Positions 9,150-64,000 of a DNA stretch of 64,000 bases are shown one piece after another; position 1 is the stretch's first letter, and each line of letters opens with the position of its first letter. The stretch comes from an uncultured archaeon (GTDB lineage: Archaea; Aenigmatarchaeota; Aenigmatarchaeia; QMZP01): positions 1,607-65,606 of the forward strand of contig CAZCGK010000009.1 of the NCBI GenBank assembly GCA_964498245.1, written 5' to 3'. The notes under the pieces were generated by a model. That model was not told where the DNA came from, ran no database searches, and saw nothing but the letters and a program-made list of their open reading frames with translations. Both the position numbers and the translations under genes were made by a program.

Positions 9150-9245
9150 AATGATTTATTGAAGAAAAATCAGTTATTTAAATTTTTAAGCAGGTCTTAT
9201 TGAGTTAAAAGTTTTAATATCAACCTTTAATATTCGATAGATAAA

Positions 9246-9366: not shown

Positions 9367-9367
9367 A

Positions 9368-11040: not shown

Positions 11041-11070
11041 AAATTAAAAAAATTAATACCCAGTTTTTAT

Positions 11071-35042: not shown

Positions 35043-36317
35043 TCACAAATCAAGCAACCATCTCCAGAGAGGCACAAATTTTATTTTTCTTCCTTCTGAA
35101 GTTTCCTCTCCCTCATAATCCCAAGTTATAACAAGCAAATTCCTGCATTTCAGTTCCCTTCCTGCTTTGAGCAAAGCCCTGATCTCCCTTCTTTCAATCT
35201 CATCTCTACTTTCCATGCAGGTTACCTGTATAAGCTGTTTTATGTTCACTCCATTCTTAATCACAAAATCCACTTCATGTTGCCGGTAATCCTTCCAATA
35301 GTAAATCTCTTCGCTTCCGTATCTGTAACTCCTTCTTCTCATAAGCTCTACTGCCACAAGATTTTCCATAAGCCTTCCAAAATCTTCTGAAATTCTGAAG
35401 GAAATCGTATTGGCAAGCCCTGTGTCTATACAATAGAACTTCTTTGGAGATATCATCTGTTCCTTCAGCTTTGGTGAATATCTCTTCAGAACAAAACCAA
35501 GATATGCATTTTCCAGAAAACCCAGCCAGTTTCTGAGTGTATGAACATCCCTTACCTCAAGGATATTTTTTGTTTTTCTTATGCTGAATTCCTTTGCCGA
35601 GTTTGTTACAAGATATTTAATGAATTCTTTCAGGGCATCTTTTTTCTTTATTCTGATTCTTTTCAAAATATCCTTTTCTATCATATCCCCGTATATCCTC
35701 AGCAGGATTTCTCTTCCAAATCTGTTGACTTCAGGAAACCCTCCTGCTCTGATGTAATCTTTCAGCATTTTTTTAATCTCAGCTATTTTCAGGGAATAGA
35801 GTTCACCGATATCGAATTCATTGTATTTGAGAAATTCCGAAAAACTGAAAGGAAAAAGTGTAAACTGAATATGTCTTCCAGTCAGGGCAGTGGCGAGCTC
35901 TCCTGATAGCAGTTGGGAATTGCTACCAGTGATTATTAGCCTTTTGGTTCTTCTTAGCCTGTTGGCAAACAGTTCCCATCCTTTCACTCTCTGGGGTTCA
36001 TCAAGGATTATGTTTTCAACCTTTCCGTAAAGCTCGTAGAAAGCTTCAAGTATTTTGTTTAAATCTTTTGCTTCAATCTCCACAAATCTTTCATCATCGA
36101 AATTGATGTAGGCGAAGTTTTTCTGAAAAATCTGAACTGAGAGTACGGATTTTCCGCATCTCCTGACACCGAGAATTGCGAGAATGTTGGGAAAACCCAG
36201 AAATTTTCTTAATTCTTCTCTATTTACTTCCCTTTCTATGATCTTTTCTTTTTCGAATTTTTCTCCAATCTCCTCTCTCTGGGCAGTTATTATATCCTTG
36301 ATTTCATGGAGTTTCAT
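35043..36317 (-). CDS. AAA+ ATPase with C-terminal DUF4143 domain (paralog of 19975..21297)
   Basis: Walker A 'LGVRRCGKSV' and Walker B 'NIILDEPQ' are present. The C-terminal region aligns with the paralog ('...YWKDY..EVDFVIK.G...LIQV...'). Confidence 0.75.
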   Translation of the reverse strand: MKLHEIKDIITAQREEIGEKFEKEKIIEREVNREELRKFLGFPNILAILGVRRCGKSVLSVQIFQKNFAYINFDDERFVEIEAKDLNKILEAFYELYGKVENIILDEPQRVKGWELFANRLRRTKRLIITGSNSQLLSGELATALTGRHIQFTLFPFSFSEFLKYNEFDIGELYSLKIAEIKKMLKDYIRAGGFPEVNRFGREILLRIYGDMIEKDILKRIRIKKKDALKEFIKYLVTNSAKEFSIRKTKNILEVRDVHTLRNWLGFLENAYLGFVLKRYSPKLKEQMISPKKFYCIDTGLANTISFRISEDFGRLMENLVAVELMRRRSYRYGSEEIYYWKDYRQHEVDFVIKNGVNIKQLIQVTCMESRDEIERREIRALLKAGRELKCRNLLVITWDYEGEETSEGRKIKFVPLWRWLLDL

Positions 36318-36546
36318 AAAATTATAATCACAAACTTTATATAAAAAGTTTGCGGTTTTAAATTTTAAAAACCGTACAGTTTTAACAAAACCAGCGGAAT
36401 TGTTGAATATTTATCGCAGATTGTACATATTTATAAGATTTTGTACAGTAAAATGGGCAAAATTGCATTAAATGTTTCGGTATAATGTAACATTTTAAAT
36501 TTCTGTTTGTTAAACTTCGATAATAAAATCTAATATTTAATATTTG

Positions 36547-36753
36547 TTAACGCTTCTTTTCCAAAAAACCAGAGATTGAAAACGCTAAAACAACAGCGAA
36601 TGAAATAAAAGCAAACGAAGCATAAATTGTAGATTTAATATCACATACATCAGATTCAAGTGAACAAGGAATAAATAACCCCATTAAATAATCAAAATAC
36701 ATCCCAAGTACTAAAAATATTATTACAAAAACCAAACACTGATTCCTGTTCAT
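36547..36753 (-). CDS. small membrane protein
   Basis: 68 aa with two hydrophobic helices. Confidence 0.3.
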   Translation of the reverse strand: MNRNQCLVFVIIFLVLGMYFDYLMGLFIPCSLESDVCDIKSTIYASFAFISFAVVLAFSISGFLEKKR

Positions 36754-37211
36754 AAAAATTGATGATATAACAAGATTTATAAAATTTTATTTAAAAAGAA
36801 TTCCACCGGTCTGTGATCGATGGGTATGGGCTTTATTATCACAATATTTTTGATCAGCTTTAACTTCTATTATGCCATTTTTCCATTAATTTTTCTCGTC
36901 TATCCAATTCACTTAAGTTTAAAGGATCAAACTTCGAGCTCTTATACCAAAAAAGTCGAGCACATAGTGGAAGATAACCAGGACTTTCGAGTTCATCGTA
37001 GTATCCCTTTTGTATTCCTTTGCTCATTTTTATTTTTTGGATTAATTTTCCGATTTCCATTTTTATCACTTTTAAAGCACTATAATAAATAACTTTAAAA
37101 ATTATCTTGCCGAAGGGAATGAGTCAAGCAAATGCGAAGACAAGAATTTGTATTTTATAAGTAGTAAAAAACCGAAAAATTTATAAAGATTGAGTTTTAT
37201 ATTCTTGTTAG

Positions 37212-37631
37212 GTGGTTAGAGTGGGTAAGGGATTAGTTAAACTTTATGTAGAAATTATAAAAGAAGATTACTCTGATTTGCTGGGAAAAATCGGATACAA
37301 CAATATTGAAGAGGATTTGACCGATGATGGAGAGTGGCACGGAGATATTAAGCCTCTTGGAAAGGTAGCTTTTTGGAGAGGGGAAAGCAAAGATGACGGA
37401 ATAGTTATAAGGCATGTCAAATTCTACGGGCCTGATGGACAGACAGCTCATGGAAGAGGTTTTTATGCAATCGGAAATGCCCCTCAGCAATTAAAAAAAT
37501 TGGGATATAAATGCAGAGGTTATGAAACAAAAATAAAAATCAACAATAGAGAATACAAAGCAATCAAACTGTTTGGTGATATGAACCTTTATGATTTTTT
37601 AGAAGAAAAAACAAAATCCTACAGAAGCTAG
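37212..37631 (+). CDS. hypothetical protein
   Basis: 139-aa ORF with protein-like composition. Confidence 0.4.
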   Translation: MVRVGKGLVKLYVEIIKEDYSDLLGKIGYNNIEEDLTDDGEWHGDIKPLGKVAFWRGESKDDGIVIRHVKFYGPDGQTAHGRGFYAIGNAPQQLKKLGYKCRGYETKIKINNREYKAIKLFGDMNLYDFLEEKTKSYRS

Positions 37632-37674
37632 TTACACAAAAAACAAATTTATTCCTCCCTCACAAAATTCTAAT

Positions 37675-50289: not shown

Positions 50290-50564
50290 GCAAAGAATTT
50301 AAAGAAAGCCCCCGGTGGGACTTGAACTAAAGTTCGGATCTCCTCTTTCAGCCTTTAAAAAATTATTCATAAATTATCACTTTCTTATCTTCTAATTCAA
50401 TATTAACTATATCCCCCTTTTTGATTTTGAGTTGTTTAATGATTTCTTCAGGAATACAAACATATAAGGAGTTTCCAGATTTCATCACTTTTCTTTTAAA
50501 AATTACACCCATATTAAATCTATACTGTGTATATGTTTATAAAACTTTCGGTCTATTTTATAAT

Positions 50565-51383
50565 ATGAATTACAACCAAAAAGTAAAGAAAGAATTCATA
50601 AAATATTTATACAGGAGAAATTTGTCAGAGGGGAGAATAAGGAAATATATGCTGGTTTTTGATGAGATTGAAAAGCTTAAAATAAACCTAAAAAGACTCA
50701 CCAAGAACGATATAGACAAATACTTTTTCTATTTGATGAAAAGTAAATATAAGGAATGGACGATAGTAACTAAATGGAAATGCTTTAAAAGAATTTGCAA
50801 ATTTGTCAAGAACATAGATCTAAGCGAATGGTATATAAAAACTCCAAACATAGAACCGGAGATACTTTCTCTTGATGAAATAAAAGCTATTATTGAAAAT
50901 CTTAGGAATTTCAGAGATAGATTAATCGTGATGTTGTTATATGAGAGTGGTATGCGCATAAGTGAATTGCTGAATTTAAAGAAAGGGGATGTTATATTCG
51001 ATTTCTACGGAGCATTGTTAAGAGTTCATGGAAAAACAGGTGTTAGATATATAAGAGTTGTAAAAATTGCTGAATTGCTTAGAATTTATATTAATTTATC
51101 TGCATCAGAAAGATTGTTTGAAATTACTGAACGTGCAGTTTTAAAAAATATAAAAAAGGCATGTGAAAAGGCTGGAATTAAAAAGCGTGTATATCCACAC
51201 TTATTCCGTCATACGAGAGCAACACATCTTGCGAAATATCTTACTGAGTCGGAACTAAAGGCTTATTTTGGTTGGTCGAAATATTCGAATATGCCTGCTA
51301 TATATGTACACTTATCAAGTAGGGACGTTGATGAAAAGATCATTAAAACAAGTCAGATTCATGATCTACAGTTAAAAATATAA
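50565..51383 (+). CDS. int: tyrosine recombinase/integrase
   Basis: Box I 'ESGMRISELLNLKKGDV' and box II 'HLFRHTRATHL...YVHLSSRDV' (catalytic Tyr) are present. Start trimmed to the ATG at 50565, downstream of an AT-rich promoter ('tttataaaac'). Confidence 0.8.
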   Translation: MNYNQKVKKEFIKYLYRRNLSEGRIRKYMLVFDEIEKLKINLKRLTKNDIDKYFFYLMKSKYKEWTIVTKWKCFKRICKFVKNIDLSEWYIKTPNIEPEILSLDEIKAIIENLRNFRDRLIVMLLYESGMRISELLNLKKGDVIFDFYGALLRVHGKTGVRYIRVVKIAELLRIYINLSASERLFEITERAVLKNIKKACEKAGIKKRVYPHLFRHTRATHLAKYLTESELKAYFGWSKYSNMPAIYVHLSSRDVDEKIIKTSQIHDLQLKI

Positions 51384-51433
51384 AAATATAAAAGTAATAA
51401 AATAATACTTAAGGTGGCCTGAGTGGTGGGAAT

Positions 51434-51574
51434 TTGACTAAAAAATCAATACACGTTTCTCGTGAGACTTGGAAATCACTCATGAAAATCAAGTTGGAAA
51501 CGAATGCAAGTTCTTTAGATGATGTTATTCGTTTTCTAATCGAGAAGGGTGGTAAGAAATGGTTAAAGAAATGA
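51434..51574 (+). CDS. ribbon-helix-helix (CopG/Arc-like) DNA-binding protein with a TTG start
   Basis: (M)TKKSIHVSRETWKSLMKIKLETNASSLDDVIRFLIEKGGKKWLKK shows a beta-strand and two-helix RHH pattern. 46 aa, so absent from the ORF track. Confidence 0.4.
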   Translation: MTKKSIHVSRETWKSLMKIKLETNASSLDDVIRFLIEKGGKKWLKK

Positions 51575-51726
51575 ATTTAACTGATAAAATTTCGCTTGTT
51601 GTAATATATGTTATGATTGTGCTCGCATTTTTATTCGGTGAACCGTATGGTGTGAGACAGTCTTATGTGATTACAATAGCTATAATCGTGACTATGAGTA
51701 TTATTTGGTATCTCACCAAAAAATAG
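51559..51726 (+). CDS. small membrane protein (55 aa), overlapping the RHH gene
   Basis: MVKEMNLTDKISLVVIYVMIVLAFLFGEPYGVRQSYVITIAIIVTMSIIWYLTKK has two hydrophobic helices. Confidence 0.3.
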   Translation: MVKEMNLTDKISLVVIYVMIVLAFLFGEPYGVRQSYVITIAIIVTMSIIWYLTKK

Positions 51727-52126
51727 TGATCAGGTAGGCTCCGAGAAGCAGAATGTATCCGGGAGTTTCCTCTCTTTCTTTTTTGATCAATTTTTTTGTT
51801 ATAAAAGATAGTATGAAAAGTCCTGTGAAAGCTATTAGAAACTTTATTATTTTGAAATGTTCTATCGCTCCGAAGCCGAGCAGGATCCAGACAAGAGCTT
51901 GTAAATCACCGGTGGCCATGAATTTTTTTGTTAAGAGTATTACAATAATAGTGAGAAAAATCAGTATGAAAACTAAAATTATATTTATTTTAAAGTACCC
52001 TAAAAGCATCATTGTTGCTCCAAACATGAAATAGTTGTATCGTTCATCTATTTCTCTCGTTCTGATGTCTCTGAAAGTGTTGTAAATGAGCATGAGTATA
52101 GAGAGAAAGTAATATATTGTGATCAT
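51713..52126 (-). CDS. element membrane protein
   Basis: 137 aa with four transmembrane helices. Confidence 0.4.
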   Translation of the reverse strand: MITIYYFLSILMLIYNTFRDIRTREIDERYNYFMFGATMMLLGYFKINIILVFILIFLTIIVILLTKKFMATGDLQALVWILLGFGAIEHFKIIKFLIAFTGLFILSFITKKLIKKEREETPGYILLLGAYLITIFW

Positions 52127-52569
52127 TCTGTCAACCCTTTCAAAATCTCTCTTGATTTAACTATAAGCTCGCTCATTATTGCTTCTACAAAGATTTCGTT
52201 AATCTTGATAACAAAATTTTCAACATCTTCAACAAGCGGAACAAAAGAATCTGATTTGTCTTTTGGAATTATTTTTTCATAGTATTTCTTTATCTCTTTC
52301 TTATAAGTTTTGAATTCTTTTATTTGTTTTGTAAGTGCGTTGAATCGTACATAAACTTTAAATATGATTGATCTAAGTTGATTTATTGTTTCCATCAAAC
52401 TTTTCTTCTCCGAATCTTCTATATCATATTTTTGCAAACTTTCTTCTGTGTATTTGTTTTTGAGATGAACATAAAGATTTATGTAAGATGAAGCGTAAGC
52501 TATGAGAAACTCTATATCTGAAAGGAATGTAAGCAAGTAACTTGCTCCTGCGACTTTTTCTTCTTGCAT
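52123..52569 (-). CDS. element hypothetical protein
   Basis: 148 aa, helical and charged. Overlaps its neighbours by 4 nt in the translationally coupled array. Confidence 0.4.
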   Translation of the reverse strand: MQEEKVAGASYLLTFLSDIEFLIAYASSYINLYVHLKNKYTEESLQKYDIEDSEKKSLMETINQLRSIIFKVYVRFNALTKQIKEFKTYKKEIKKYYEKIIPKDKSDSFVPLVEDVENFVIKINEIFVEAIMSELIVKSREILKGLTE

Positions 52570-52572
52570 ACT

Positions 52573-53394
52573 TCACCTCGTCTGCACAGCTGTTTTAACA
52601 GTTTCTTGCGTTGCCGAAATTGCAGGTCTAAGTGTTTCTGATATGATTGGTAAAAATGTCATAGCGAGTAATACGAAAACAACTATTAATACAAGCCAGA
52701 ACCACCACGAGGATAAGAATCCAAATGGTTTTTTCGGTTTTGTCATTTCTACGACATGTCGTGCGAAGTCTCTCATTATGCTTGTGAGTTCTTCTGTTTT
52801 CTTTTTCAAATATAAAACAAGATGTTTTATCATAGCATCTTCTTCAAGTTTAGCGAGAGCATCTTTAGTTAAGAATGCATCCATGCTTTTATTATAGATC
52901 AGAACCGGAAAATGTTCGAAAGCGAATGTTATTTTATTAGTATCTTCTTTTTTGTATCTAAGTATGTAATAATCATAATCTTCACTGAATTTTTCTTTAA
53001 GTTTTTCTTTGGCTTCTTCTTTACTGAGTTTTGTTATTGTCGCTTCTTTTGGTTTTTTCATATAAAAAACACTTTTTCTGTCAAATAGTGATGTCGTTTT
53101 GTATTTATCTGAATCAATAAAGGGTAGTCTTACTTTTGCTATGAATGGTTCAATGAGGCCAGAACTATCGAATGTGAATGCGAGAAGTCCTTCTCCTTCG
53201 AGAAACTGTAGTACCGGATGTCTCACTATCATATTAAATAAAAATATTGAAAGAACCATTGTGATTAACCATGCAACTATAGCGAATATCAGACCGTATC
53301 CGAACAGAATAAACATAAAAAACATAAGCGTAGGCATAAATCCAACTAAGAACAGTGCAGCCCATTTCTTTATTTTAAACATATTAAGTTTCAT
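52573..53394 (-). CDS. element membrane protein
   Basis: 273 aa with an N-terminal two-helix transmembrane region and a C-terminal transmembrane segment. Confidence 0.45.
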   Translation of the reverse strand: MKLNMFKIKKWAALFLVGFMPTLMFFMFILFGYGLIFAIVAWLITMVLSIFLFNMIVRHPVLQFLEGEGLLAFTFDSSGLIEPFIAKVRLPFIDSDKYKTTSLFDRKSVFYMKKPKEATITKLSKEEAKEKLKEKFSEDYDYYILRYKKEDTNKITFAFEHFPVLIYNKSMDAFLTKDALAKLEEDAMIKHLVLYLKKKTEELTSIMRDFARHVVEMTKPKKPFGFLSSWWFWLVLIVVFVLLAMTFLPIISETLRPAISATQETVKTAVQTR

Positions 53395-53395
53395 G

Positions 53396-53941
53396 CTATC
53401 TCCTCAAGCTAATAAATGTTTTTTGTTCGGGCGGTTTCTCCAGAGAGGGAACGAGGGTATATGGATAGTCGTATTGATATTCGAATCTTGATTTTGAAAG
53501 ACTATCAAAAGCAAATGCTTCAAGGCCAAGCGTGCTGCGTGAAAGAAATAGAAAGACGTCAACACTAAACTTCACGTCGTGCAACATCATCTTTTTGATC
53601 TGGTCGAGTATTTCTTTTATCTCTTGTTTGTATTTTTTGAAATTGAATTTTTCGAGTTGTTGTTCATAATCATAGAGAAACTCTGCTAATTTTGTGAGAT
53701 CACGAACCCATGTGAAGTATTTTCCAAGCAAATAGCGATCATACTCTTGCAAATTTGTGAGCTTGAGTTCAATATTTGTGAGCATATAAAGAAGTTCTAA
53801 GAGTTCTTCACGTGTGAGATCATCTTTTTTGATAAGTTCTCGGAGCCTTTCGGCTTCTCTCCTACCGAGAAGCTTGTCTATAAAAGTCTTCTCTGTTTGT
53901 TGAGCATGTAACTTTTGTGATAGAAGTTTCTCAAATTGCAT
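53396..53941 (-). CDS. element hypothetical protein
   Basis: 181 aa, helical. Confidence 0.4.
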   Translation of the reverse strand: MQFEKLLSQKLHAQQTEKTFIDKLLGRREAERLRELIKKDDLTREELLELLYMLTNIELKLTNLQEYDRYLLGKYFTWVRDLTKLAEFLYDYEQQLEKFNFKKYKQEIKEILDQIKKMMLHDVKFSVDVFLFLSRSTLGLEAFAFDSLSKSRFEYQYDYPYTLVPSLEKPPEQKTFISLRR

Positions 53942-54176
53942 ATTTGTTCCTCAGATAATTTATTTCTTGATTCGTCCTGTAGAGATAGTATGCACCCACT
54001 ATAAGTGCAACTGTAACAATATAAAAACCAAATTGCAAGAACTCTGTTGCATAAGATAAGAATGAGAAAACAATTATCATAATTGCAAGCAGTCTGATTG
54101 TATAGAGTTTTTTAAGCACCTCTGCTGCTGCTACAGTCTTTGTAATCATTTCATTCTGTTTTTTCATAGAGATCAC
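53931..54176 (-). CDS. element small membrane protein
   Basis: 81 aa with two transmembrane helices. Confidence 0.35.
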   Translation of the reverse strand: MISMKKQNEMITKTVAAAEVLKKLYTIRLLAIMIIVFSFLSYATEFLQFGFYIVTVALIVGAYYLYRTNQEINYLRNKYAI

Positions 54177-54333
54177 ATAAATAGTTTAAAACTTCATCGA
54201 GGGAACGTGCTTTTATTTTTAATTTGATTTTCATAAGACGTTCCCATGTGGTCTCTCTAACATTAAGTGTTTTTTTCATACTTTTATATTTTAGTAAAAA
54301 AGTATTTAAATATTTTTATAGAAATATAAAAAT

Positions 54334-54729
54334 ATGAAGATATTTGGAAAAAGGTTCTTTGAATTCGTTTTCAGTAAATTAGGTAGTAATCTCAATAAAA
54401 AAATTGATATATGTTTTGATATCGAAGTTTATGGTGATTCTTTCAAAGTAGAATTGTTTTATGAATTGCCAAAGACATGGTATTTACAAGCACTTAGATA
54501 TACCCTCAAGAAAGATGTTAATTTACCGGACACATTTAGAACTGATAAAAGAGCATTTTCTTTTGCAACACCAAGGTTGAAAAGCACATTAAAAAAGATT
54601 GAAAAGGATGTACAAAGAGATCTAAAAGCATTCAGAATTGTGACATACAAAATTAAAGATATGTTGTTTGTTGTTAAAGATAATGTTGTTGAAACAAAAA
54701 TAATTGTTGAGGGATTATGCGTGAGTTGA
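54334..54729 (+). CDS. element hypothetical protein
   Basis: 131-aa ORF on the opposite strand to the main array. Confidence 0.35.
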   Translation: MKIFGKRFFEFVFSKLGSNLNKKIDICFDIEVYGDSFKVELFYELPKTWYLQALRYTLKKDVNLPDTFRTDKRAFSFATPRLKSTLKKIEKDVQRDLKAFRIVTYKIKDMLFVVKDNVVETKIIVEGLCVS

Positions 54730-54959
54730 TATTTTATGTTTCTGTTGTAAACCAGAATGAAAAACCTGTTCTCTATATTCGCAAAGTTACATCTGATCGT
54801 AATTTTATGATTGATTTGATAAATACTCTTGTTAAGAATGAAGAATATGTGTTTCGAGGAAGATTGAAATTTAGAAATAGACTTTCAGCTATTGTAACAC
54901 TTAAAAAAATGCTCGGTTTTTTGTGAGTTATCCGTAATTTGTCACTGAAGATCTTGGAA

Positions 54960-55056
54960 GTATGGATAACTAAAAATAAAAAATAAAGAAAAAACTAAGA
55001 AAATGCTATGTTGGGTGCTGTTGTTTCTGTGCTGCTAAGTGCTTTACAGAGCACTT
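54960..55056 (-). terminator. hairpin plus oligo-T terminator after the capsid-like gene
   Basis: On the minus strand, the hairpin 'aagtgctctgtaaagcactt' is followed by 'ttttttctttattttttattttt'. Confidence 0.45.
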
Positions 55057-55388
55057 CCGTAGTAGCCGTAGCTTGTTGATCTTCCAAGTCCCATGATAAG
55101 CCCAAGAACCACGAAGATTATCACTGCCAAAACAACAATCGGTAGATAGTTACCTGTGGTCTTCAGGGCTTTGAACCCAGAAGTTATGCTGTCCTTGACA
55201 TATGTCTGTATTGTTGTATCGTTTATTGCATTTATGTCTGTCTCGACCTGACTGTATACCTGTCCACCGAGTGTGCCGACGAAAATCAAAACGAGTGTCG
55301 CCACACCGACGCCCATGATCAAAAGTATTACTGCACCGGTTTGCTCCTGAACTGCTCCTCTCTTTTTATAAACAAGTTTTGTGTTCAT
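55044..55388 (-). CDS. small two-helix hydrophobic protein; candidate major capsid protein of a spindle-shaped virus
   Basis: The 114-aa protein has two hydrophobic segments (VILLIMGVGVATLVLIFVGTL; LPIVVLAVIIFVVLGLIMGL). It is followed by a strong hairpin plus oligo-T terminator. Confidence 0.4.
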   Translation of the reverse strand: MNTKLVYKKRGAVQEQTGAVILLIMGVGVATLVLIFVGTLGGQVYSQVETDINAINDTTIQTYVKDSITSGFKALKTTGNYLPIVVLAVIIFVVLGLIMGLGRSTSYGYYGSAL

Positions 55389-55436
55389 GTTAAAGAAATA
55401 GAATTGCTTTTTTATAAAAATAGTAGAAATGCCATT

Positions 55437-55766
55437 TTATATTTTTACTTTTTTATATTTTTTGAATGGATGTTTTGAGAGATGTAGCATGATTTCTATT
55501 ATTGTGAATATCACAACAAGAGAGAATAAGAATGTGTTTATGTTATGCAGAAATGCAAACATTCTGATTATATTTTTCGCTGAATCTAAAGAGAATGATA
55601 GAGTTGCGAGCGTTATGAGAAACGAGAAGAATGAGAGAATCAAAGTTATGAAAGATGCTTTTATGTCAAATGTTTTCACGAAGCTCATTAGATTGTAGAG
55701 CTTAGATAGAAATATACATAAATTGATTGTGAAAAACATCAGTCCGAGTAATTCTATTATATTCAC
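55437..55766 (-). CDS. element membrane protein
   Basis: 109 aa with three transmembrane helices. Confidence 0.35.
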   Translation of the reverse strand: MNIIELLGLMFFTINLCIFLSKLYNLMSFVKTFDIKASFITLILSFFSFLITLATLSFSLDSAKNIIRMFAFLHNINTFLFSLVVIFTIIEIMLHLSKHPFKKYKKVKI

Positions 55767-56044
55767 ACTATCACCGACTGTGTTTTCTTGTAGCTTATGA
55801 GTAACGATATAGTTAGTATGACGAATGATGCAAGTATCATTATAATGTGATACATCGTGTTGAATCCAAGAGCATAAAATATCATAAATTCGATTGACGT
55901 CATGAAGAATAGCAAAAGTAAACCTAATCTAAATTCTTTTGCCATGAAAATTATACTTGAGAGAACTGTAACTATAAGTATGAACACTTCATTTGTTACT
56001 CCGAGATTACTCGTCAATTCTGTGAGTATTTCGAACATACTCAT
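55763..56044 (-). CDS. element membrane protein
   Basis: 93 aa with three transmembrane helices. Overlaps its neighbour by 4 nt. Confidence 0.35.
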   Translation of the reverse strand: MSMFEILTELTSNLGVTNEVFILIVTVLSSIIFMAKEFRLGLLLLFFMTSIEFMIFYALGFNTMYHIIMILASFVILTISLLISYKKTQSVIV

Positions 56045-56493
56045 ACTATCGAACCTCTACTTCTTATATTCAGTATGAAAGCCAACAAATTCATGAAGTA
56101 AAGTATTGATATAGCACTAAACACGAATAACTTGAGCTGTGCTGATAAAAAAGCATCAAGATTGAAAAACATCAAAAAGAAATTTGTGAGTATACTAAAC
56201 ATGCTCGGAATTGCGAAGAAGAAGTTAAGCATGAGATCTATAATGATATTACCGGAATAGAATACCAAGGCACCCAAATCAATAAGTGGAATGTTCATCT
56301 GTTGTTGTGTTGTTGATTCTATCTGAGATGTTATATCTGTTATATCTGTTGTAATATTCTGCATCTCTGTGAAGTAGATGTTGTTTACATTGTAAAGAGA
56401 GAAAGCATGAGTTAGCGTTGTAACTCCGAAACTGTAGAATAATTGAATTATTATGATCCATACGAAATATTTGTATGCTGACATTTTCACCAC
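56041..56493 (-). CDS. element membrane protein
   Basis: 150 aa with multiple transmembrane helices. Confidence 0.35.
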   Translation of the reverse strand: MVKMSAYKYFVWIIIIQLFYSFGVTTLTHAFSLYNVNNIYFTEMQNITTDITDITSQIESTTQQQMNIPLIDLGALVFYSGNIIIDLMLNFFFAIPSMFSILTNFFLMFFNLDAFLSAQLKLFVFSAISILYFMNLLAFILNIRSRGSIV

Positions 56494-56531
56494 TACTATT
56501 TTATATTTTTACTATTTTATATTTTAACATT

Positions 56532-59387
56532 TTATGTTATTTTCGAATATTCTTCTTTATAGACGAGTAATACGAATATGAGCATAATGATGATTATTGT
56601 TTGTATAAACACGATTTGTGTCGTCGCTGGTGCAAGTGTTGTTATTGCTAAAGCGATTATTAAAGTGATTATACCGAAAAAACCAAAGATGTGTCTTACA
56701 GCTACGAATGTTAAACCGAAAAATATTAGAGTTGCTGATATAAATATTGCGAGCCATGTGTCTATAAGTCCGATCGCTCCGGACAATGTGAATATTCTCA
56801 CTATTTCTGATTGAGATGTCTGCGTGTATTTCTTTACTACAAGCTTTAGTATGTTGTTCTGAATACTTATGCTTGAGTAATCGAAGTAAATCGTAAATTC
56901 GTTTGGTGTTTCTGTTTCAGTATGAGAAAATAGAACTGTGTCCCCGTCATAGATATAGATTTCTGTTTTTGTATTCTCATTTTCTAAGTTTTTATAGTAA
57001 ATTTTCAGTGTTGTATTAGATATTTTGCTTACGCTTATATCGTCAGTTGTAAGTGTGAAGGTGTAAGTCTTTTTTGTTGATTCTAAAACGTCGAGATTAA
57101 CTGATGTTGCTACTGATCCGTCAAGCGTTGCTAAAAATACTTTCTGATCGTTTTCGTAAGTGTAGAGATAATAGAGAGCTTTGATTGTATATGCCTTTGC
57201 CATGAGTGCATCTTGATATGCGTATTTTGTATAATCTGCGAGGACATAGCACTGAGCGAGATTGTTTTTAACTGCTATCGGTTTGTTTGTGCTGGAGTAA
57301 AAAACTATTTCATAGAATTGTTGTGTCTTTGCTACACACGCTCTTGTTGTTGTATCTATTAATTCGAGATTTAAATCAATATATAGTAAGCTGTTAGGAT
57401 CAGTATTATAACGTTTTTCTATGCGAATTACATCACTTTGATTTGAAATAAAGAGTATAGATGTGTCATTGTTTTCTAAGAAGTTGAAAATCTCTTGTGT
57501 TTTCTCACTAATTGCTCTGAGTGTGTTCATATCTGAGAATGAATTGAAAACACTACCGTCATCTTCGTTGATCAGAGTTATATTTTTCTTGTAGATGTAT
57601 ATCTTGTTGCTGCTTGAATCTTGATTGTTTACAATATCGTGACATGTTACACTAAACGAGTTCGTTCCGTCACTGAGTGTGAAGCTATAAACCGTATAAT
57701 TATTTGCGAATAAATATGAATATTTATTTGTATTTATTGTTATATTACATTCTTGCACTGGACTCACTGAATCGCTTACAGAGATATTTATGTATTCAGT
57801 TGCGTTATTGCGAAAACCGTAATTGAAATTATAAGAAATAATTATTTGTGGTGGATTGATATCGCTTATATATGTAAAGTTTTTGCTTTCTATAATGTCG
57901 GGATCTTTAAACAAAAATACAATGGCTGTTAATTCTGTGTCTATGTTATTTGTGTAAATGGTGCTGAATTGATAAGTTATATTGTTGCATTGTATTATTG
58001 TTTCGTTGTAATATTGTGTATTTGCATAATCATCTATTCTTACAATAACACTGATTGAGTTATTTAATAATCCACACCGTGCTGAATAATTTATGTTTAT
58101 TGTATGTGCATAATTTATATTGTTATAAGTTGTGTAATTTGAGAATGTAACAATAAGTGTATATAAATCTGTTGTAAAGAAAACTGTTTCAGATGATGTT
58201 TTACTTTCGCTATCTGTTGCATATATTGTTAAATTGTTGAGTGTTTCACTCTCTACTGTTATGTTCATTTCTATTGTTGTGTCATTGTAATAACTGTTAT
58301 TTTCGTATATTTTTTGCCCATTGAGATATATTGTAACATTTAAGGTTGTTGAATTATCATCTGAAACTATGAAGTTTAGAAAAATATTGCTTGTATAGTA
58401 AGTTGTATTTGACGGTGAGTAAATTATTATCGATGGTGGATTGGTTTCTGCTGTTTCCTCCGCTCCAAAACTGTATGTCGGTTCTGGGTCGTGGTATTTT
58501 CTTATAAAAAACCAATCTGTATATGATATACAATCATATGATGGTCTATATCGAATCATATCTCCTATGTTTTCTCCAGACACTGTTTGCTCGAAAACAA
58601 AATCTCCATTATCGAGGTCTGCGATGAGATATGTCGTGTTCGGAGTTATTGCTGTATATTCGTGAAACTCCGTTGTATCGAATACATATGTTGATGAATA
58701 ATAATAATTATTTGTTCCTCCGTATCTGTCGCTAATTCTTATATAATCGTTTATTCCATCAAACATTATTTGATCATGATTATCTATATCTTCGTATCTT
58801 ACATCAACTTGTGTTTGTGCATTTGTTGATGTGTTAACTTTCCAATGCACCGCAATTGAGTCAGTTGTTGTATATGATACTGAAAGGACTCCCCAAGATG
58901 TTGTATCCGTTCTTTGTAAATACCCATCTGCCTCTGTATATGTGCCTGACTCTACAGTCCATTTGCTTGTATTGAAATCTTCATCATCGAAATCATCTGC
59001 AAACAAAAAAGTTGAATCTATATCACTTTCATTCGCCGCTCCCGAATTCCCGTAATACATGCAGATTGTGCTGTTTATCGTGGGAACTTTAACCCAAACT
59101 TCAGCATACTGCCCGTCAACTTTGTTTTCAATCCAGTAGGGAATTTCGTAAGCATCGTCTGAACAGTTGTTCGTGAATCTCAAATCGTCGAAATCAGATT
59201 GCATTCCAGACTCGTATGTAACATTAAGCAAAACCTGATAATCTGTCAAGCTTGAGCCATCAGGAACGGTTATTTCTATCTGCTTCCTGTACTGCCAATC
59301 GGTATTCCACCAAACAGCGTATGCAGAGTTTATAGTAAGAAGTAAGAAAATCATCAAACTTAACGTTATTATCGTTTTTCGTATCAT
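56532..59387 (-). CDS. large secreted and membrane-anchored protein with an N-terminal DUF2341-like (concanavalin/LamG-like) domain; putative virion adhesin
   Basis: Signal peptide 'MIRKTIITLSLMIFLLLTINSAYA', then 'VWWNTDWQYRKQIEIT...DLRF...YWIE...VWVKVP...YYGN', the DUF2341 hallmark. The body is N/T/S/Y-rich and ends in a C-terminal cluster of three or four transmembrane helices. 951 aa. Confidence 0.6.
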   Translation of the reverse strand: MIRKTIITLSLMIFLLLTINSAYAVWWNTDWQYRKQIEITVPDGSSLTDYQVLLNVTYESGMQSDFDDLRFTNNCSDDAYEIPYWIENKVDGQYAEVWVKVPTINSTICMYYGNSGAANESDIDSTFLFADDFDDEDFNTSKWTVESGTYTEADGYLQRTDTTSWGVLSVSYTTTDSIAVHWKVNTSTNAQTQVDVRYEDIDNHDQIMFDGINDYIRISDRYGGTNNYYYSSTYVFDTTEFHEYTAITPNTTYLIADLDNGDFVFEQTVSGENIGDMIRYRPSYDCISYTDWFFIRKYHDPEPTYSFGAEETAETNPPSIIIYSPSNTTYYTSNIFLNFIVSDDNSTTLNVTIYLNGQKIYENNSYYNDTTIEMNITVESETLNNLTIYATDSESKTSSETVFFTTDLYTLIVTFSNYTTYNNINYAHTININYSARCGLLNNSISVIVRIDDYANTQYYNETIIQCNNITYQFSTIYTNNIDTELTAIVFLFKDPDIIESKNFTYISDINPPQIIISYNFNYGFRNNATEYINISVSDSVSPVQECNITINTNKYSYLFANNYTVYSFTLSDGTNSFSVTCHDIVNNQDSSSNKIYIYKKNITLINEDDGSVFNSFSDMNTLRAISEKTQEIFNFLENNDTSILFISNQSDVIRIEKRYNTDPNSLLYIDLNLELIDTTTRACVAKTQQFYEIVFYSSTNKPIAVKNNLAQCYVLADYTKYAYQDALMAKAYTIKALYYLYTYENDQKVFLATLDGSVATSVNLDVLESTKKTYTFTLTTDDISVSKISNTTLKIYYKNLENENTKTEIYIYDGDTVLFSHTETETPNEFTIYFDYSSISIQNNILKLVVKKYTQTSQSEIVRIFTLSGAIGLIDTWLAIFISATLIFFGLTFVAVRHIFGFFGIITLIIALAITTLAPATTQIVFIQTIIIIMLIFVLLVYKEEYSKIT

Positions 59388-59556
59388 TCATCAGTCACCA
59401 CACTTGTTTTGTTTCATTACCTGCAATCTTTCTTCGTGTTGCTTTACGTCATCCTCTCTCCATCCTTTTATGACTTCCAATATTCTCTCAAATAACTCTG
59501 TTTGTTTCCGAAGTTCCTTCAATATCGCTTTTAATAATATTTGTGTTGTCATACTA

Positions 59557-59760
59557 TCATGTGCTTATATTCGAGTTTTTCAACGCTTCTGATGTCTTTT
59601 CACACTGTTTTCCATTTATTTTCATATAGATCGGTGCTATTTCGAGTTTGTAATAATCGTAAAAATCTACTTCCTTACCACATCTCATGCAAACATAATC
59701 TATTCCGTTCATGTCTTTCGGAATAAAAACATGTTTGCATTTTCTTTGCATAACTATCAC
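59557..59760 (-). CDS. small zinc-finger protein
   Basis: 67 aa with 'CKHVFIPKDMNGIDYVCMRCGKEV'. Confidence 0.35.
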   Translation of the reverse strand: MIVMQRKCKHVFIPKDMNGIDYVCMRCGKEVDFYDYYKLEIAPIYMKINGKQCEKTSEALKNSNIST

Positions 59761-60104
59761 CTTATTTCGCTTTCAACTATTGTTCTTGTTCGCATGAACA
59801 AAATAAACAAAATTATGATTAGTATGATTAACCATGAATATTGATAAAAAAATGAAAGTGCTGATATTTGTTGAGATGTGCTCGTTCTTGCAGCTTCTAT
59901 ACTTTCGTTTGCTACAGCAGGTAAAGTGCTTGTATTTATTGAATTAAGAATATCGTTGCCTGCTGAATAAAATTGTGTATTAAATTCTATTAAGATTGGA
60001 ACTGCGAAACCGAACAGAAAGAGAAGAAGAACACTCATGATAATAAAAACTAACCACATTCCTACTACTCCTTTTCTGTTTCTTATTTTTTGTTTCATAT
60101 TCAC
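59757..60104 (-). CDS. element membrane protein
   Basis: 115 aa with an N-terminal transmembrane segment and an internal transmembrane helix. Confidence 0.35.
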
Positions 60105-61375
60105 ATCATCAAATCTTGCATAACTTTACGCATTTTTTGCAATTCATTGTAATAGATAAGTCTACCTTTTTTGAAAACACCTTTCATTTCACCTGGTAGT
60201 TTTCCGGGAATAAGAGGTAATGGTGGTGGGACTCTTACTTGTGGTGTTGGTGTAGGAGTTGGAGTGGGTGTTACTGTTGGTGTAGGAGTTGGAGTATCTG
60301 TTGGTGTAGGAGTGGGTTCTGGTGTAGGTTCAGGAGTAGGTGTAGGAGTTGGACTCGGTTCTGGTGTTGGAGAAGGTGTTGGTGTAGGGGTGGGTGTTAC
60401 TGTTGGTGTAGGAGTTGGAGTGGGTGTAGGGGTTGGCATAGGTGTAGGAGTTGGACTCGGTTCTGGTGTTGGAGAAGGTGTTGGAGTAACTGTTTTTATT
60501 CTTATTCTCTTTTTTCCTTTTGTTTGTGTTGGTGTTTGCGTTGTGGTAGATGTGGGAGTTGGTGTTATAGTTGGAGTTATGATTGGAACTGTCGGTTCTT
60601 TTACAAATTTATGTCCTAAAACATCACCAATTTTTTCATATGGATCTATAAGTGACTGTCCTATCCAATCTACCGCTTTTGCTCCTTTCATTTTGTTTAT
60701 ATACATTTTTGATAAACCATAACCACCTATCCCAGCACTTATTGTACCCAATCCAGCACTAATTAAAATTGTTCCTGGTTCAACTTTACCTTCTCGTGCA
60801 AGAGATGATACTATTGATGTTACAGTGCCTTCATAAAGACCACCAACTGCAGACGCTTTTAATACTTGTTTTGGTATTTGTTTTTTAGCTACATTTAATG
60901 CAATTTTACCACCACTTTTTGCTGTTAATTTAGTTATACCTTTTGTTGCGATTTTTGCACCAAGTGCTTCTGATGCACCAGAAGGTATTGCTACACCTAT
61001 TGCTTCTCCTATTCCCCCAGCGAGTTCAAGTGTTGATACGGCTGATGCAATTTTCTTAGCTTGTGTTTTATCTACACCACGCTGTATAAGTTTTTGTTCA
61101 GTCTTTTTTGCAACCTCTTCTCTATAAAATAGCTGTGATCCTGGAATATCGAAAGCTGTTATTTCTTTACCGCCATCGGGAAGAATATCGATACCGGGAG
61201 ATGATTCTCTTACTTCCGCTTTTGCTTCTTGTATCGTTTGTTGTATTGTTGTGTTTGTTTCTATTTGCTGTTTCACATCTGCTTCTATTTGTGTTTTCGC
61301 TATTTCTTTTGCTATGATTGGTGCTAATATGCTCGCTGCTGTTGCAATTGCCAATCCAACAAGGAATCCCACCAT
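60101..61375 (-). CDS. membrane-anchored protein with a long Pro/Thr-repeat linker (fibre/tape-measure-like)
   Basis: N-terminal transmembrane segment '[20 protein letters not shown]', a Gly/Ala-rich helical region, then about 110 aa of ([12 protein letters not shown])n repeats, followed by a basic C-terminus. Confidence 0.55.
60236..60495. repeat. DNA-level tandem repeats encoding the Pro/Thr linker
   Basis: 'ggtgttggtgtaggagttggagtgggtgt' units are reiterated. A roughly 38-nt block 'ggagttggactcggttctggtgttggagaaggtgttgg' occurs twice (about 60349 and about 60452). Confidence 0.7.
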
Positions 61376-61379
61376 TCTT

Positions 61380-61922
61380 TCACCCGAACATCGATTTTAT
61401 TACATCGAAAGCTGTAGGTGGTTTTTTCTTATTTTTAAGAGATCTTGTAGGTCTCATCGCTACTCCCCCCGATATGGCCACTCCCGGTGGTTTTGCTCGA
61501 CCCTTCTCAAATTTTGGAACATAACCTTCAGCTTGGTTAATTCTTAGCTCGATTAATGCAACGAGCTTAGGATCTAAGCCACGAGAAATTATATAAGCAC
61601 GTAGTCGCTCAAGAAATTCTCTATCATTTATCTTTCCTTGAGCGTTTGCAAGCGTGAGTTTTTCTATGTATTGGATATCATCAAGTAAATGTGGAGCGTA
61701 CTTTCTTGCAAGTAATTTCAAAATTCTGAAACGGCCTCGTAGTTCTTTTATTGTTGCTGGATCATATTTCTGTGGTGTTCTTGTAAGAAGTTGTCCATTT
61801 ATTTCATCATATGCTGTTGCATATAAATTTGTTAATAATTCCCAATCTTCATTTACTTTACCATGTGTTGGGATCCCAGCAACGCTTCTACCTACACCCA
61901 TATAAATATTTTTCTTCTTCAC
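61380..61922 (-). CDS. element hypothetical protein
   Basis: 180-aa basic protein. Confidence 0.4.
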
Positions 61923-61955
61923 AGTATAAAATAGTAATTTAGTATTTTTATAAAT

Positions 61956-62366
61956 TTATGAAATGGCACTTTCCTCTTTTTCTGATTCAGCATTTTTTGT
62001 TTTTCTAAAGACAATTGAAATATTTATCTTTCTTGTTCTCGAGTCGAGTAGTTCTGCGACTTTTTTTATTTCTTTAAGTAACTGATCCGTCTTATCTGCA
62101 TGCTTATTCTTTATTTTCTTTCTAAAGTCGACGAAGTCAAAATTAAATTTTTGTCCGAGTAAAGCTTCTGCTATACGTAGCATTTGAAGATAAGAGTTAA
62201 AGCGATCTTCTGATGACTGATTCGGATTTGAATAACTCATAAGTCCTGCTTTGATGTGTTGATAGAACAAATGTATTATAGGGTCTTTAGCGAAATCTAT
62301 AATTTCTTGATATTCTCCGAGTTGTTTTTCAATTATTTCTTCATTAGATTTTGTTTTCTTTTTCAT
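61956..62366 (-). CDS. element hypothetical protein
   Basis: 136 aa, helical and charged. Overlaps the downstream ATPase gene by 4 nt. Confidence 0.35.
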   Translation of the reverse strand: MKKKTKSNEEIIEKQLGEYQEIIDFAKDPIIHLFYQHIKAGLMSYSNPNQSSEDRFNSYLQMLRIAEALLGQKFNFDFVDFRKKIKNKHADKTDQLLKEIKKVAELLDSRTRKINISIVFRKTKNAESEKEESAIS

Positions 62367-63337
62367 ATCAACCCTCTTCTTTTGACTTCTTCTATGAATC
62401 TTGGTAAAAATTCTTTTTTGAATTCTGATTTCGATAAATCGAACATTTTCATTATTATCTGTGCATTCTGTGTCGTAAAGTAAACACCACGACGCTTTGA
62501 GAACGAAGCGAGATTCTTCACCATTTCAAAGATTTCATCAACTTGCAGTTCTTGTGTGAAATCTCTGATCTCTCCGAGTTCACGCTTTATCTCCCGGAGA
62601 ATTATCTCACGCTTTCTCTTGAGTATTTTTGATTTAGTTTCTATACTATGTTTAATAAACTCTTGTTTTACTTCTGTGCTTGGCATAGTTATTATCGATG
62701 TTGAAATCTTGAAAGTATAATCTCCGAAAGGAAGTTCTAATCTTTTTAAACGCAGTATTGGCTTTTCAACGTTGCTTCTGTCATTCCAGAATGTGTAGAT
62801 ATGCATTTGCACCTGATGCTTACGTTCAAGAATTATATCATAGTGGATTGTTTTTCTTACATCTTTTACTATATCTCCGAGATCTTGTGAATTGTAAATG
62901 AGAATTCCACCATAACCACAGTTTTCAACTTTAATCGCTCGTAGTGTTGCGTTTGCTTCCGCAATGGATTGAGAGAGTAATGTATACCATCTGTGAGCTG
63001 AAACAAGTTGTCTTAACTCCTCTATAACGAGAGTTATGTATTTACTCTTTGTCCATAGATCTACTTTTTTTGAATACTCAGCTGGTGTGTAAATAACTTG
63101 TTTGATAACATTGTAGTTTATAGCGATATTCATTATACGAGAGAATAAATTTTCAAGACGTTGTGCAAGAGAAAGACATGTCATACTTTTACCTTCTCCA
63201 CTTTTACCTTCAACAAATACAATAATTATACGATCATTAAAAATAGGTTCGATGAATGCTTTATAGAGAATGAGATCTTCAAGAGTTTCTATCGCATCAA
63301 AAACCCTTTTATCTTTTATTTCGATTTTTATTTCCAT
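62363..63337 (-). CDS. P-loop ATPase (viral or plasmid type)
   Basis: Walker A 'VEGKSGEGKSMT' and Walker B-like 'ITLVIEE' are present. 324 aa. Confidence 0.55.
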   Translation of the reverse strand: MEIKIEIKDKRVFDAIETLEDLILYKAFIEPIFNDRIIIVFVEGKSGEGKSMTCLSLAQRLENLFSRIMNIAINYNVIKQVIYTPAEYSKKVDLWTKSKYITLVIEELRQLVSAHRWYTLLSQSIAEANATLRAIKVENCGYGGILIYNSQDLGDIVKDVRKTIHYDIILERKHQVQMHIYTFWNDRSNVEKPILRLKRLELPFGDYTFKISTSIITMPSTEVKQEFIKHSIETKSKILKRKREIILREIKRELGEIRDFTQELQVDEIFEMVKNLASFSKRRGVYFTTQNAQIIMKMFDLSKSEFKKEFLPRFIEEVKRRGLI

Positions 63338-63491
63338 ATTAATATATTTTTATAAAAATATTAATTTATAGTTTTACTTTTTTTATCAAAAAACACTTTA
63401 TCGACAAAATGGTTATTTTGTCGCAAAAAGAGATCGAAAGTTCGTGTGATAGACCAGTTATATTAAAAGTCAAATAGATAACCTAAATAGA

Positions 63492-64000
63492 CTAACTCAT
63501 TACTTTCTTAAGGTATTTAGCAACTTCGAGAGCATATCTACGAGATCCGTGAACATAGAATGTCGAAGATCCAGCGATGGCTTTCGGCAACAAAGGTTTA
63601 CCGAAGTAAAAGTTTATGTATTTTTCTTCAAGTCCTAAATCAAAGAGAATAGATGCTATGTTGTGCCTGAAGAAGTAAAATGTGTATGGGTAGAATTTGC
63701 CTTTTACGGTTTCTCCGATATTGTATTCTATATTCAGACGCAAAAATTTATCTCGTGGGTTTCGATACTTCGCTATATGTGTAAACAAATACTCCTTTGG
63801 AAAAATCTTTTTCTTGAAAAATTCTGCGAGAAATTCGGTTTGTTCATTGCAGATAGGGAGCATTATAAGCCGTTCAAAACCGCCTTTTATCGTCTGTATC
63901 TTCATTCTTATATATTCTTTCTCTATTTCTATTCTTTCCCGGACTATCAAACATATTTCGGCAGGCCTTGCTCCTACAAGATATTGCGTTATGAGCAAAG
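63492..64000 (-). CDS. tyrosine-recombinase catalytic domain (second integrase), N-terminus beyond the window
   Basis: Box I-like 'LVGARPAEICLI', box II-like 'FFRHNIASILFDLG', and '...TFYVHGSRRYA' with a candidate catalytic Tyr. The frame is open to the window edge; the ORF-track start is a TTG. Confidence 0.45.
   Translation of the reverse strand, partial: LLITQYLVGARPAEICLIVRERIEIEKEYIRMKIQTIKGGFERLIMLPICNEQTEFLAEFFKKKIFPKEYLFTHIAKYRNPRDKFLRLNIEYNIGETVKGKFYPYTFYFFRHNIASILFDLGLEEKYINFYFGKPLLPKAIAGSSTFYVHGSRRYALEVAKYLKKVMS

Follow-up and report, generated by a model that had tools for sequence, protein, structure and literature searches.

Recent metagenomic studies take a highly hydrophobic alpha-helical hairpin as the capsid protein that marks spindle-shaped viruses of archaea (PMC12934983, PMC9894754, PMC10848311), and two concanavalin-like lectin transmembrane (TM) proteins have been reported as core proteins of Thermococcales virus families (PMC12934983). 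Elements of the pT26-2 type, described as combining one ATPase with large exported proteins and numerous TM proteins (PMC6972569, PMC2926602), are reported only from Thermococcales and Methanococcales (PMC6972569). How does the locus analysed here compare? It lies in a 64,000-nucleotide stretch (termed the window) of contig CAZCGK010000009.1, assembly GCA_964498245.1, from an uncultured archaeon. The low-GC stretch that begins near 50.3 kb represents the left three quarters of an approximately 18-kb mobile element at the end of a tRNA-Thr gene. Integration of a mobile element, with its left attachment site (att) defined, is secure; on balance, a temperate virus in its integrated state, with a capsid associated with membrane, seems the best reading. 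Support for the virus reading comes from a hairpin protein with viral homologues, an ATPase of the spindle-virus type and a circular relative of 17.8 kb. The integration end and most of the morphogenetic module are inside the window, and the replication/variable module and the right att are beyond 64 kb. The features on which the argument turns are these:

50307..50327, minus strand: left att, the final 21 nt of a tRNA-Thr(UGU) gene, from T-loop to acceptor end, beside a host metallo-beta-lactamase-fold gene
50566..51383, plus strand: tyrosine integrase, intact, 272 amino acids (aa) from Met-49 (Pfam Phage_integrase 7.8e-21; reading frame open from 50421)
51713..52126, minus strand: candidate prepilin-type (A24) aspartic membrane peptidase, 137 aa (Pfam Peptidase_A24 3.1e-4)
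55044..55388, minus strand: candidate major capsid protein, 114 aa, a hydrophobic alpha-helical hairpin (AlphaFold2, family alignment)
62363..63337, minus strand: P-loop (ASCE) ATPase, 324 aa (Walker A GKSGEGKS, Walker B LVIEE)
63492..64000, minus strand: short tyrosine-recombinase-like protein, C-terminal 169 residues of 208 (full length from contig L001, see below)

The left border is marked by a piece of a tRNA gene. The sequence AGCCCCCGGTGGGACTTGAAC fills 50307-50327, just past the stop codon (50289) of the host gene, and resembles the reverse complement of a tRNA 3' end. It is present in a single copy in the window, where none is expected by chance. An exact scan located this 21-mer in 22 metagenome contigs of the Joint Genome Institute (JGI); ARAGORN predicts a tRNA-Thr(TGT) ending with it in seven of the 22, and most of the others have the same tRNA-Thr body interrupted by introns. 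In the window the tRNA similarity ends at the T-loop, and 50307-50327 is therefore a displaced 3' fragment, the remnant at the distal junction after integration into the 3' end of a tRNA gene. Neither a tRNA (ARAGORN) nor an Rfam family was detected in the window; the RNA-family scan missed the 21-nt fragment because it is too short for a covariance model. A first-pass annotation, made from the letters of the window, had suggested a repeat of 50290-50420 as att. The site is indeed there, but is limited to the tRNA-Thr fragment. A Logan contig (SRR7051320) that is free of mismatches to the window across 9,989 nt ends at 50305, at att. This could be the break expected if the core has two continuations in the sample, e.g. 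an integrated and a circular one, or alternatively a coverage artefact. The 21-mer is also found without an upstream tRNA body in two other contigs (L099, 4306-4326; L110, 1483-1503), and these copies may be att scars of other elements with the same target.

The integrase gene lies 240 nt inward of the att fragment. A 'suicidal' integrase of the SSV type, split across both ends, was considered and rejected, as the left integrase is complete and att is outside the gene; being intact and 240 nt inside att, the integrase is not of the self-splitting kind. The first-pass annotation had rightly placed an intact tyrosine integrase and a ribbon-helix-helix (RHH) regulator at the left; there are in fact two RHH paralogues and an AbrB/MazE gene.

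Does the element exist in a free form? The JGI contig Ga0366835_1006508 has an exact terminal overlap of 114 nt and closes into a circle of 17,756 bp. Its ATPase is 89% identical to that of the window, and the whole gene order of the window element is present, with structural proteins 60-91% identical. The free circular form is thus seen for a close relative, not for the window copy. The proposal of an integrated mobile element was borne out by the tRNA 3' fragment at the border together with this relative, which assembles as a 17.76-kb circle. The window integrase is only 36% identical to that of the circle, the AbrB/MazE gene is absent from the circle (a different small gene is at that position), and the genes to the right of the recombinase are not common to the circular relative and a contig identical to the window. 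With structural genes alike, integrases at 36% and right-hand genes unshared, it follows that the morphogenetic block is conserved, with exchange of the modules for integration and replication. attP was not located by alignment of the left junction to the circle, because the integration modules of the two are not homologous.

The element extends beyond the window. A contig from the European Nucleotide Archive (L001) is identical over 11,638 nt and reaches window-equivalent 64879; past the open reading frame (ORF) that is cut by the window edge, it shows two more element-type genes. An end of the element at the window edge, as first proposed, is thus ruled out. The idea of integrases at both ends fell as well, as the second recombinase-like gene is internal and is found beside the ATPase gene in every relative examined: it adjoins this gene in contigs L003, L004 and L005, and in the circle about 4 kb of small genes and a 738-aa winged helix-turn-helix (wHTH)/Zn-ribbon protein come before the integrase is reached. 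Since the second recombinase is internal in the circular relative, the element must continue past 64 kb. The 208-aa protein matches Pfam Phage_integrase at 2.4e-6 (27.9 bits, cutoff 27.1). NCBIfam matched no core protein and gave only weak Xer-type recombinase matches for this protein. The right end was sought by look-ups with the ATPase and p273 genes and by a JGI metagenome scan with the 208-aa recombinase; these returned contigs ending at or before window-equivalent 64879, or no match. The first-pass suggestion to extend past 64 kb and look for an att repeat was partly rewarded: the element continues at least to 64879, but there is no second 21-mer in the window. The 76,918-bp source contig seems to stop at the window edge.

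Prominent among the element's proteins is the 114-aa candidate capsid protein. A two-helix hydrophobic protein of about 12 kDa had been predicted, and it is present: the AlphaFold2 model is a long helical hairpin (mean predicted local confidence, pLDDT, 80) with helices at residues 13-53 and 58-102. Aligned from the N to the C terminus, family members have a leader that varies, a conserved Y-x-[KS]-x-G, two hydrophobic helices separated by a polar loop, and a tail rich in Gly. The family is large, much larger than that of the ATPase. It has at least 140 proteins at 55-90% identity, many of them on contigs of 14-21 kb, and a scan of 1.84 billion cluster representatives (50% identity) with a family hidden Markov model (HMM) gave 308 at E <= 1e-3. 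A second size class, of 175-205 aa, has an insertion of about 65 residues in the loop, at the exposed turn. In BFVD the sole significant matches to the 114-aa protein are viral proteins of 116 aa (43%) and 187 aa (26%), one for each size class; the UniProt accessions of the pair are A0A5Q2WAT0 and A0A5Q2W4Q0. Neither the 114-aa nor the 181-aa protein has a match in the phage collection. In the Geoglobus ahangari element described below (JBMXEO010000003.1, 8776-9195; L090) the orthologue of the 114-aa protein, of 139 aa, is 65% identical, with other core proteins at only 30-50%. A 71%-identical homologue is found in a different, smaller integrated element (GCA_054030615.1, JBPNRN010000007.1, locus 6800-12876; L094). 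This element, perhaps a satellite or a reduced relative, encodes a 384-aa integrase, proteins of 646 and 370 aa and a GINS-like protein of 83 aa; genes for an ATPase and a DUF2341 protein are missing.

The ATPase was also noted in the first pass and is confirmed here by its Walker A and B motifs. Its profile aligns by hhalign with His1 ORF16 (88.5% probability, E 2.7e-6, 154 columns) and with TPV1 gp20 (63.7%, E 6.7e-5, 135 columns). The ATPase profile was also run locally as an HMM against every stop-to-stop ORF of six archaeal viruses (1,060 in all), and His1 ORF16, TPV1 gp20, AvPV1 gp10, PAV1 ORF375 and SSV1 B251 were five of its six top-ranking matches; only that of His1 was below 0.01 in E-value, with TPV1 at 0.044 and the other three at 0.15-1.5. 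The AlphaFold2 model (pLDDT 88.8) resembles, in BFVD, inovirus Zot proteins, ATV ORF286 and an Acholeplasma phage L2 protein. Inoviruses, ATV and Acholeplasma phage L2 are released without lysis. Relatives of the ATPase are few: ten were found in a collection of 5.8 billion proteins at word-index sensitivity, and none in IMG/VR, the GTDB representatives, the phage collection or the plasmid collection, which includes pT26-2.

How widespread is this gene block? A core of about 12 genes is also present in a Geoglobus ahangari contig (GCA_053989095.1), where it comprises the ATPase, p180, the PT-rich protein, TM115, DUF2341, TM150, TM93, the 114-aa protein, p181, p273, p148 and the A24-like protein. 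A tRNA-Gly(CCC) gene, with its 3' end towards the element, is about 1 kb away from that block, separated from it by two small genes. Most of the core block is on an 18.5-kb contig binned with an Aenigmatarchaeota metagenome-assembled genome (MAG). The remaining features of the window element are:

50363..50512, minus strand: AbrB/MazE/SpoVT-type DNA-binding protein, 49 aa (Pfam MazE_antitoxin 6.9e-10)
51434..51574, plus strand: RHH-like regulator, 46 aa (weak Pfam VAPB_antitox match)
51559..51726, plus strand: small membrane protein, 55 aa (two TM-like segments)
52123..52569, minus strand: core protein p148 (orthologues in the circular relative 79%, Geoglobus 34%, L096 31% identical)
52573..53394, minus strand: core membrane protein p273, TM near the N and C termini (orthologues 77%, 38%, 41%)
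53396..53941, minus strand: core protein p181 (orthologues 86%, 49%, 58%)
53931..54176, minus strand: small membrane protein p81 (TM-like segments; 45% identical in the circular relative)
54151..54279, minus strand: second RHH-like regulator, 42 aa (paralogue of 51434-51574; 67% identical in the circular relative)
54334..54926, plus strand: p131 and p69 (82% and 75% identical in the circular relative; p131 also in Geoglobus)
55437..56493, minus strand: three polytopic small membrane proteins of 109, 93 and 150 aa (TM-like segments)
56532..59387, minus strand: DUF2341/Ig-like protein, 951 aa, secreted, C-terminally membrane-anchored (Pfam DUF2341 2.1e-18, weak Big_7)
59391..59760, minus strand: p53 and the Cys-rich Zn67 (ORFs; Zn67 52% identical in the circular relative)
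59757..60104, minus strand: core membrane protein TM115, class-III-signal-like N terminus (TM-like segments)
60101..61375, minus strand: Pro/Thr-repeat protein, 424 aa, N-terminal TM helix (orthologues in the circular relative and Geoglobus)
61380..62366, minus strand: p180 (core) and p136 (p180 50% identical in Geoglobus; p136 common to L004/L005)

The GC content is 0.389 for window positions 1-50306 and 0.330 for 50307-64000. The drop at about 50.3 kb that had been reported is therefore real, but smaller (38.9% to 33.0%) than the change from 40-45% to 30% that was claimed. The dense, mostly single-strand array of overlapping genes was described correctly. Between 50.36 kb and the window edge, 24 ORFs are complete and a 25th is cut off; the minus strand carries 19 of the 24 as well as the cut-off one. 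Most neighbouring ORFs overlap by a few bases, many by 1-4 nt. A count of more than 10 small membrane proteins was slightly generous, because only nine of the 11 complete proteins with TM-like segments are small. TM150 and TM93 are kept in all four elements compared. The DUF2341-type protein was correctly recognised from the start. It has an N-terminal signal-like segment and four C-terminal TM-like segments, its orthologues are 36-61% identical, and it is a candidate receptor-binding adhesin. The Pro/Thr repeat seen in the first pass in the 424-aa protein consists of tandem repeats at 60201-60575. The AbrB/MazE/SpoVT-type protein is likely a regulator of the integration module. The two RHH-like paralogues are inverted (60-nt arms, 72% complementary) and flank 2.7 kb of core genes. 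Upstream of several gene blocks, at 51375, 54300, 55435, 56500 and 63330, an A/T-rich motif (TTTTATATTTTTAC-like) is repeated, and these copies are probably archaeal promoters under common control.

The 137-aa protein of the candidate peptidase gene also stands out. Its Peptidase_A24 match covers model positions 2-98 of 104, and the Geoglobus orthologue matches at 3.2e-5. D20 and G73-D74 are invariant in three orthologues. A24 peptidases such as FlaK and PilD have a two-aspartate catalytic arrangement, the second aspartate in a G-x-G-D-like motif, with which the arrangement of D20 and G73-D74 agrees; by analogy, these residues may be catalytic. What might such an enzyme cut? A conserved Gly follows basic residues directly before the first hydrophobic helix in both the 114-aa protein (KKRG|AVQE) and the 115-aa protein TM115 (RNRKG|VVGMW), and G12 of TM115 is invariant in four orthologues. 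Judged from these motifs, both proteins might be processed by the peptidase, and an A24-like peptidase together with [KR]-G motifs in two structural proteins suggests an element-encoded capsid maturation. One can take this further, to an undescribed family of temperate viruses across DPANN and Archaeoglobi whose own A24 peptidase would trim the major capsid protein and a second structural protein in a pilin-like manner, but this is offered as a tentative proposal, short of a likely one. The literature search found no report linking prepilin peptidases to spindle-virus capsids.

A number of findings weigh against a spindle-type temperate virus. The family is absent from IMG/VR, as is the att 21-mer, and from the phage collection; PHROGs gave just three weak matches (E about 1e-3), all to families of unknown function, for the PT-repeat protein, TM115 and p181. 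The 114-aa profile matches none of PAV1 ORF121, TPV1 gp15, His1 VP21, SSV1 VP3 and AvPV1 VP3, and a helical hairpin is a simple fold; what the models indicate is a shared architecture, not a shared sequence. The ATPase matches to spindle-virus ATPases are of moderate strength at the sequence level: the profile reaches only 9% probability with SSV1 B251, over the same region, and searches of the PDB by sequence and by fold yield generic P-loop/RecA-like matches only. The A24 scores, 21.6 bits for the window protein and 24.7 for the Geoglobus orthologue, are below the Pfam cutoff of 26.5 bits, and the profile of the A24-like protein has no match among PDB sequences. The right att and an intact tRNA-Thr are not seen in the window, and the identical contigs end by window-equivalent 64879. 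Finally, the putative virus is known here as sequence. The earlier label of candidate spindle-shaped virus is upheld in regard to the hairpin protein, the His1/TPV1-type ATPase and the lectin-like anchored protein, but the spindle shape and the formation of virions are things that we infer.

Could the locus be an integrated plasmid or conjugative-type element instead? The A24-processed pilin-like subunits, the ATPase, the adhesin and the membrane proteins would then form a DNA-transfer filament or secretion apparatus, as proposed for the pT26-2 core. An A24-like peptidase and class-III-signal-like N termini would suit such an apparatus, the architecture agrees with pT26-2 descriptions (PMC6972569, PMC2926602), Pfam and PHROGs scans of the window proteins found no canonical capsid, portal or terminase, and the family is not recognised as viral in IMG/VR. 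Yet none of the seven core proteins of pT26-2 (GU056179; t26-5p, 6p, 7p, 11p, 13p, 14p and 15p) is detectably homologous to an element protein: there is no tblastn match at E <= 0.05, and hhalign comparison of 15 element families with 21 pT26-2 proteins gave only a 26-column P-loop match (t26-14p) and a 33-column TM-helix match. Moreover, Pfam scans show no PilB/FlaI-type ATPase, PilC/FlaJ platform, relaxase, VirB4 or VirD4; the ATPase is nearest to those of spindle-shaped viruses, and homologues of the 114-aa protein are present in deposited viral proteomes. A plasmid origin is accordingly regarded as unlikely. A temperate virus with pleomorphic enveloped virions, i.e. a pleolipovirus or a member of the 'Thalassapleoviridae' similar to AvPV1, with the 951-aa protein as the spike and the 114-aa protein as an internal protein of the membrane, seems still more doubtful. 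Such proviruses share the size class (17-18 kb) and the integration into tRNA genes, and the window element has a relative in Archaeoglobi, the hosts of AvPV1 and GahPV1 (PMC10919331). AvPV1 NTPase gp10 is the third-best match to the ATPase profile, and the modelled ATPase structure appears similar to those of budding or extruding viruses. However, the gp10 alignment is a 32-column P-loop only and GahPV1 gp15 is unmatched, whereas the alignments to His1 ORF16 and TPV1 gp20 are much longer. At the sequence level there is no tblastn or HMM match to AvPV1 gp04/gp06 (the VP4-like fusogen and the VP3-like protein) or to GahPV1, nor an hhalign match to the VP3-like protein, and the tblastn matches to AvPV1 are weak and short (Zn67, 29 residues, E 4.5e-4; TM115, 40 residues, E 0.009).

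A further alternative is a defective, domesticated remnant that is no longer mobile. In its favour are the unseen right end and the integration and replication modules that differ from those of the circular relative, but none of the core ORFs is broken, their identity to the ORFs of the circular genome is 60-91%, the integrase is intact, and one assembly breaks exactly at att, as expected with two coexisting junction forms. A dead element is thus very improbable, and the integrated temperate virus with a membrane-associated capsid is kept as the preferred reading.

For such a virus, the following course of events can be proposed. The circle would recombine through an attP that mimics the tRNA 3' end; integration would leave an intact tRNA-Thr at the far junction, with the integrase gene whole. 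The AbrB and RHH regulators would hold the element quiescent, and upon activation the minus-strand operons would be expressed. The 114-aa hairpin protein would insert in the host membrane and build a lipid-associated shell, and it and the 115-aa protein may first be trimmed at the conserved Gly ([KR]-x-G in the 114-aa protein) by the element's prepilin-type peptidase. The ATPase might power genome loading or assembly at the membrane, and the 951-aa DUF2341/Ig protein, with its C-terminal anchor, and the Pro/Thr-rich protein could form terminal or surface adhesion structures. Release of virions would be non-lytic, by budding or extrusion. The 208-aa recombinase probably has a role in multimer resolution or an alternative integration function.

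Which organism carries the element? The exact host gene beside att gave no record by look-up, and the relatives of this neighbouring gene are at most 62% identical in GTDB representative genomes. A tBLASTN search of the window ORFs against the GTDB genomes with homologues of the neighbour gene showed no shared neighbouring genes and no synteny. The host glutamyl-tRNA synthetase (32793-34457) is more informative: all named relatives among the best 120 are Candidatus Aenigmatarchaeota, 52-58% identical, and other relatives are 64-67% identical. Some members of the 114-aa family come from Aenigmatarchaeota MAGs. From these synthetase relatives, i.e. one marker gene, and the MAG origin of the family members, the host is probably an Aenigmatarchaeota-like DPANN archaeon of a hydrothermal setting.

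The host flank has features of its own. A 30%-GC island (24326-25335), immediately downstream of the gene for an S-layer protein of 832 aa (21565-24063; Pfam S_layer_C 9e-20), encodes a 183-aa wHTH and nucleotidyltransferase-like protein and a 157-aa HEPN-like protein, a probable MNT/HEPN toxin-antitoxin pair. A further 30%-GC stretch, at 36300-37650, has small ORFs, several of them hydrophobic, and is situated between the genes for an AAA_14/DUF4143 ATPase and an undecaprenyl-phosphatase-like membrane protein. The flank is rich in nucleic-acid ATPases, with two AAA_14/DUF4143 proteins, a HerA-like protein and an Lhr-type helicase (19975-21297, 25345-27399, 27440-30283, 35043-36317).

Few viruses are known for DPANN archaea, and none for Aenigmatarchaeota was found in the literature search; a provirus that is physically part of a host contig would tie virus and host together firmly. 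The family has seemingly been missed by standard viral resources and is fairly common all the same, with its 308 clusters at 50% identity. One relative is in a Geoglobus ahangari assembly labelled as that species, not a MAG, and as this is a cultured species, experiments on the family are within reach. Maturation of the capsid protein by the A24-like peptidase, if it occurs, would make this a virus that encodes its own leader peptidase for a membrane capsid protein, of which the literature search found no report, and would offer a testable explanation for the N-terminal processing of spindle-virus capsid proteins. Should the trimming be pilin-like, the hairpin capsid proteins of spindle-shaped viruses would be linked to the archaeal pilin-processing pathway.

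How, then, does the element stand beside known systems? Membership in the PAV1/TPV1 type, which the first-pass annotation had in mind, is not supported: among the element's proteins, comparisons by tblastn, HMM and profile connect only the ATPase with PAV1 or TPV1, and the same holds for SSV1, His1 and pT26-2. The profile comparison with known viruses that had been recommended was fruitful for the ATPase, which aligns with His1 ORF16 and TPV1 gp20, and for nothing else. The element is unlike His1 and TPV1 in that the capsid candidates and other structural proteins have no detectable similarity, and it is set apart from this group by an integrase that is not split on integration, by the A24-like peptidase and by its host, probably a DPANN archaeon. 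It has one DUF2341 protein, as compared with the two concanavalin-like proteins of the Thermococcales virus families, and there is no tblastn or hhalign match to PAV1 ORF676/678 or TPV1 gp22/23. From PAV1 it differs in having no protein-level match, save a weak ATPase-profile match to ORF375 (E 0.64). PAV1 is episomal, unlike the integrated window element. With the pT26-2 family (elements of 17-38 kb) it shares integration at a tRNA 3' end, a conserved block of TM proteins, exported proteins and an ATPase, and a variable replication module; the ATPases differ in length (324 aa in the window element, 433 aa in pT26-2) and align at the P-loop alone.

The likenesses are mainly in construction. 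The element is similar to AvPV1 and GahPV1 ('Thalassapleoviridae', PMC10919331), which are 17-18-kb proviruses in tRNA genes of hydrothermal archaea with the gene content of non-lytic membrane viruses, and Archaeoglobi carry both these and window-type elements. Like PAV1 (Pyrococcus abyssi virus 1; candidate 'Osirisviridae'), the family has a circular genome of 18 kb that encodes numerous membrane proteins, large proteins of the lectin type and RHH regulators, together with a small hydrophobic protein, here a capsid candidate. Like His1 (Halspiviridae), TPV1 and candidate relatives such as the 'Sethviridae' (PMC12934983), it combines a small hydrophobic two-helix capsid-type protein with a homologous ATPase; further points in common are small membrane proteins encoded in a block, a lectin-like protein that is large, exported and anchored in the membrane, and a circular genome of 18-21 kb, and with TPV1 it shares an AbrB regulator and an integrase. 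In the collections and literature searched, the element's family is undescribed; it is PAV1/TPV1-like in its working and stands outside the families of both.

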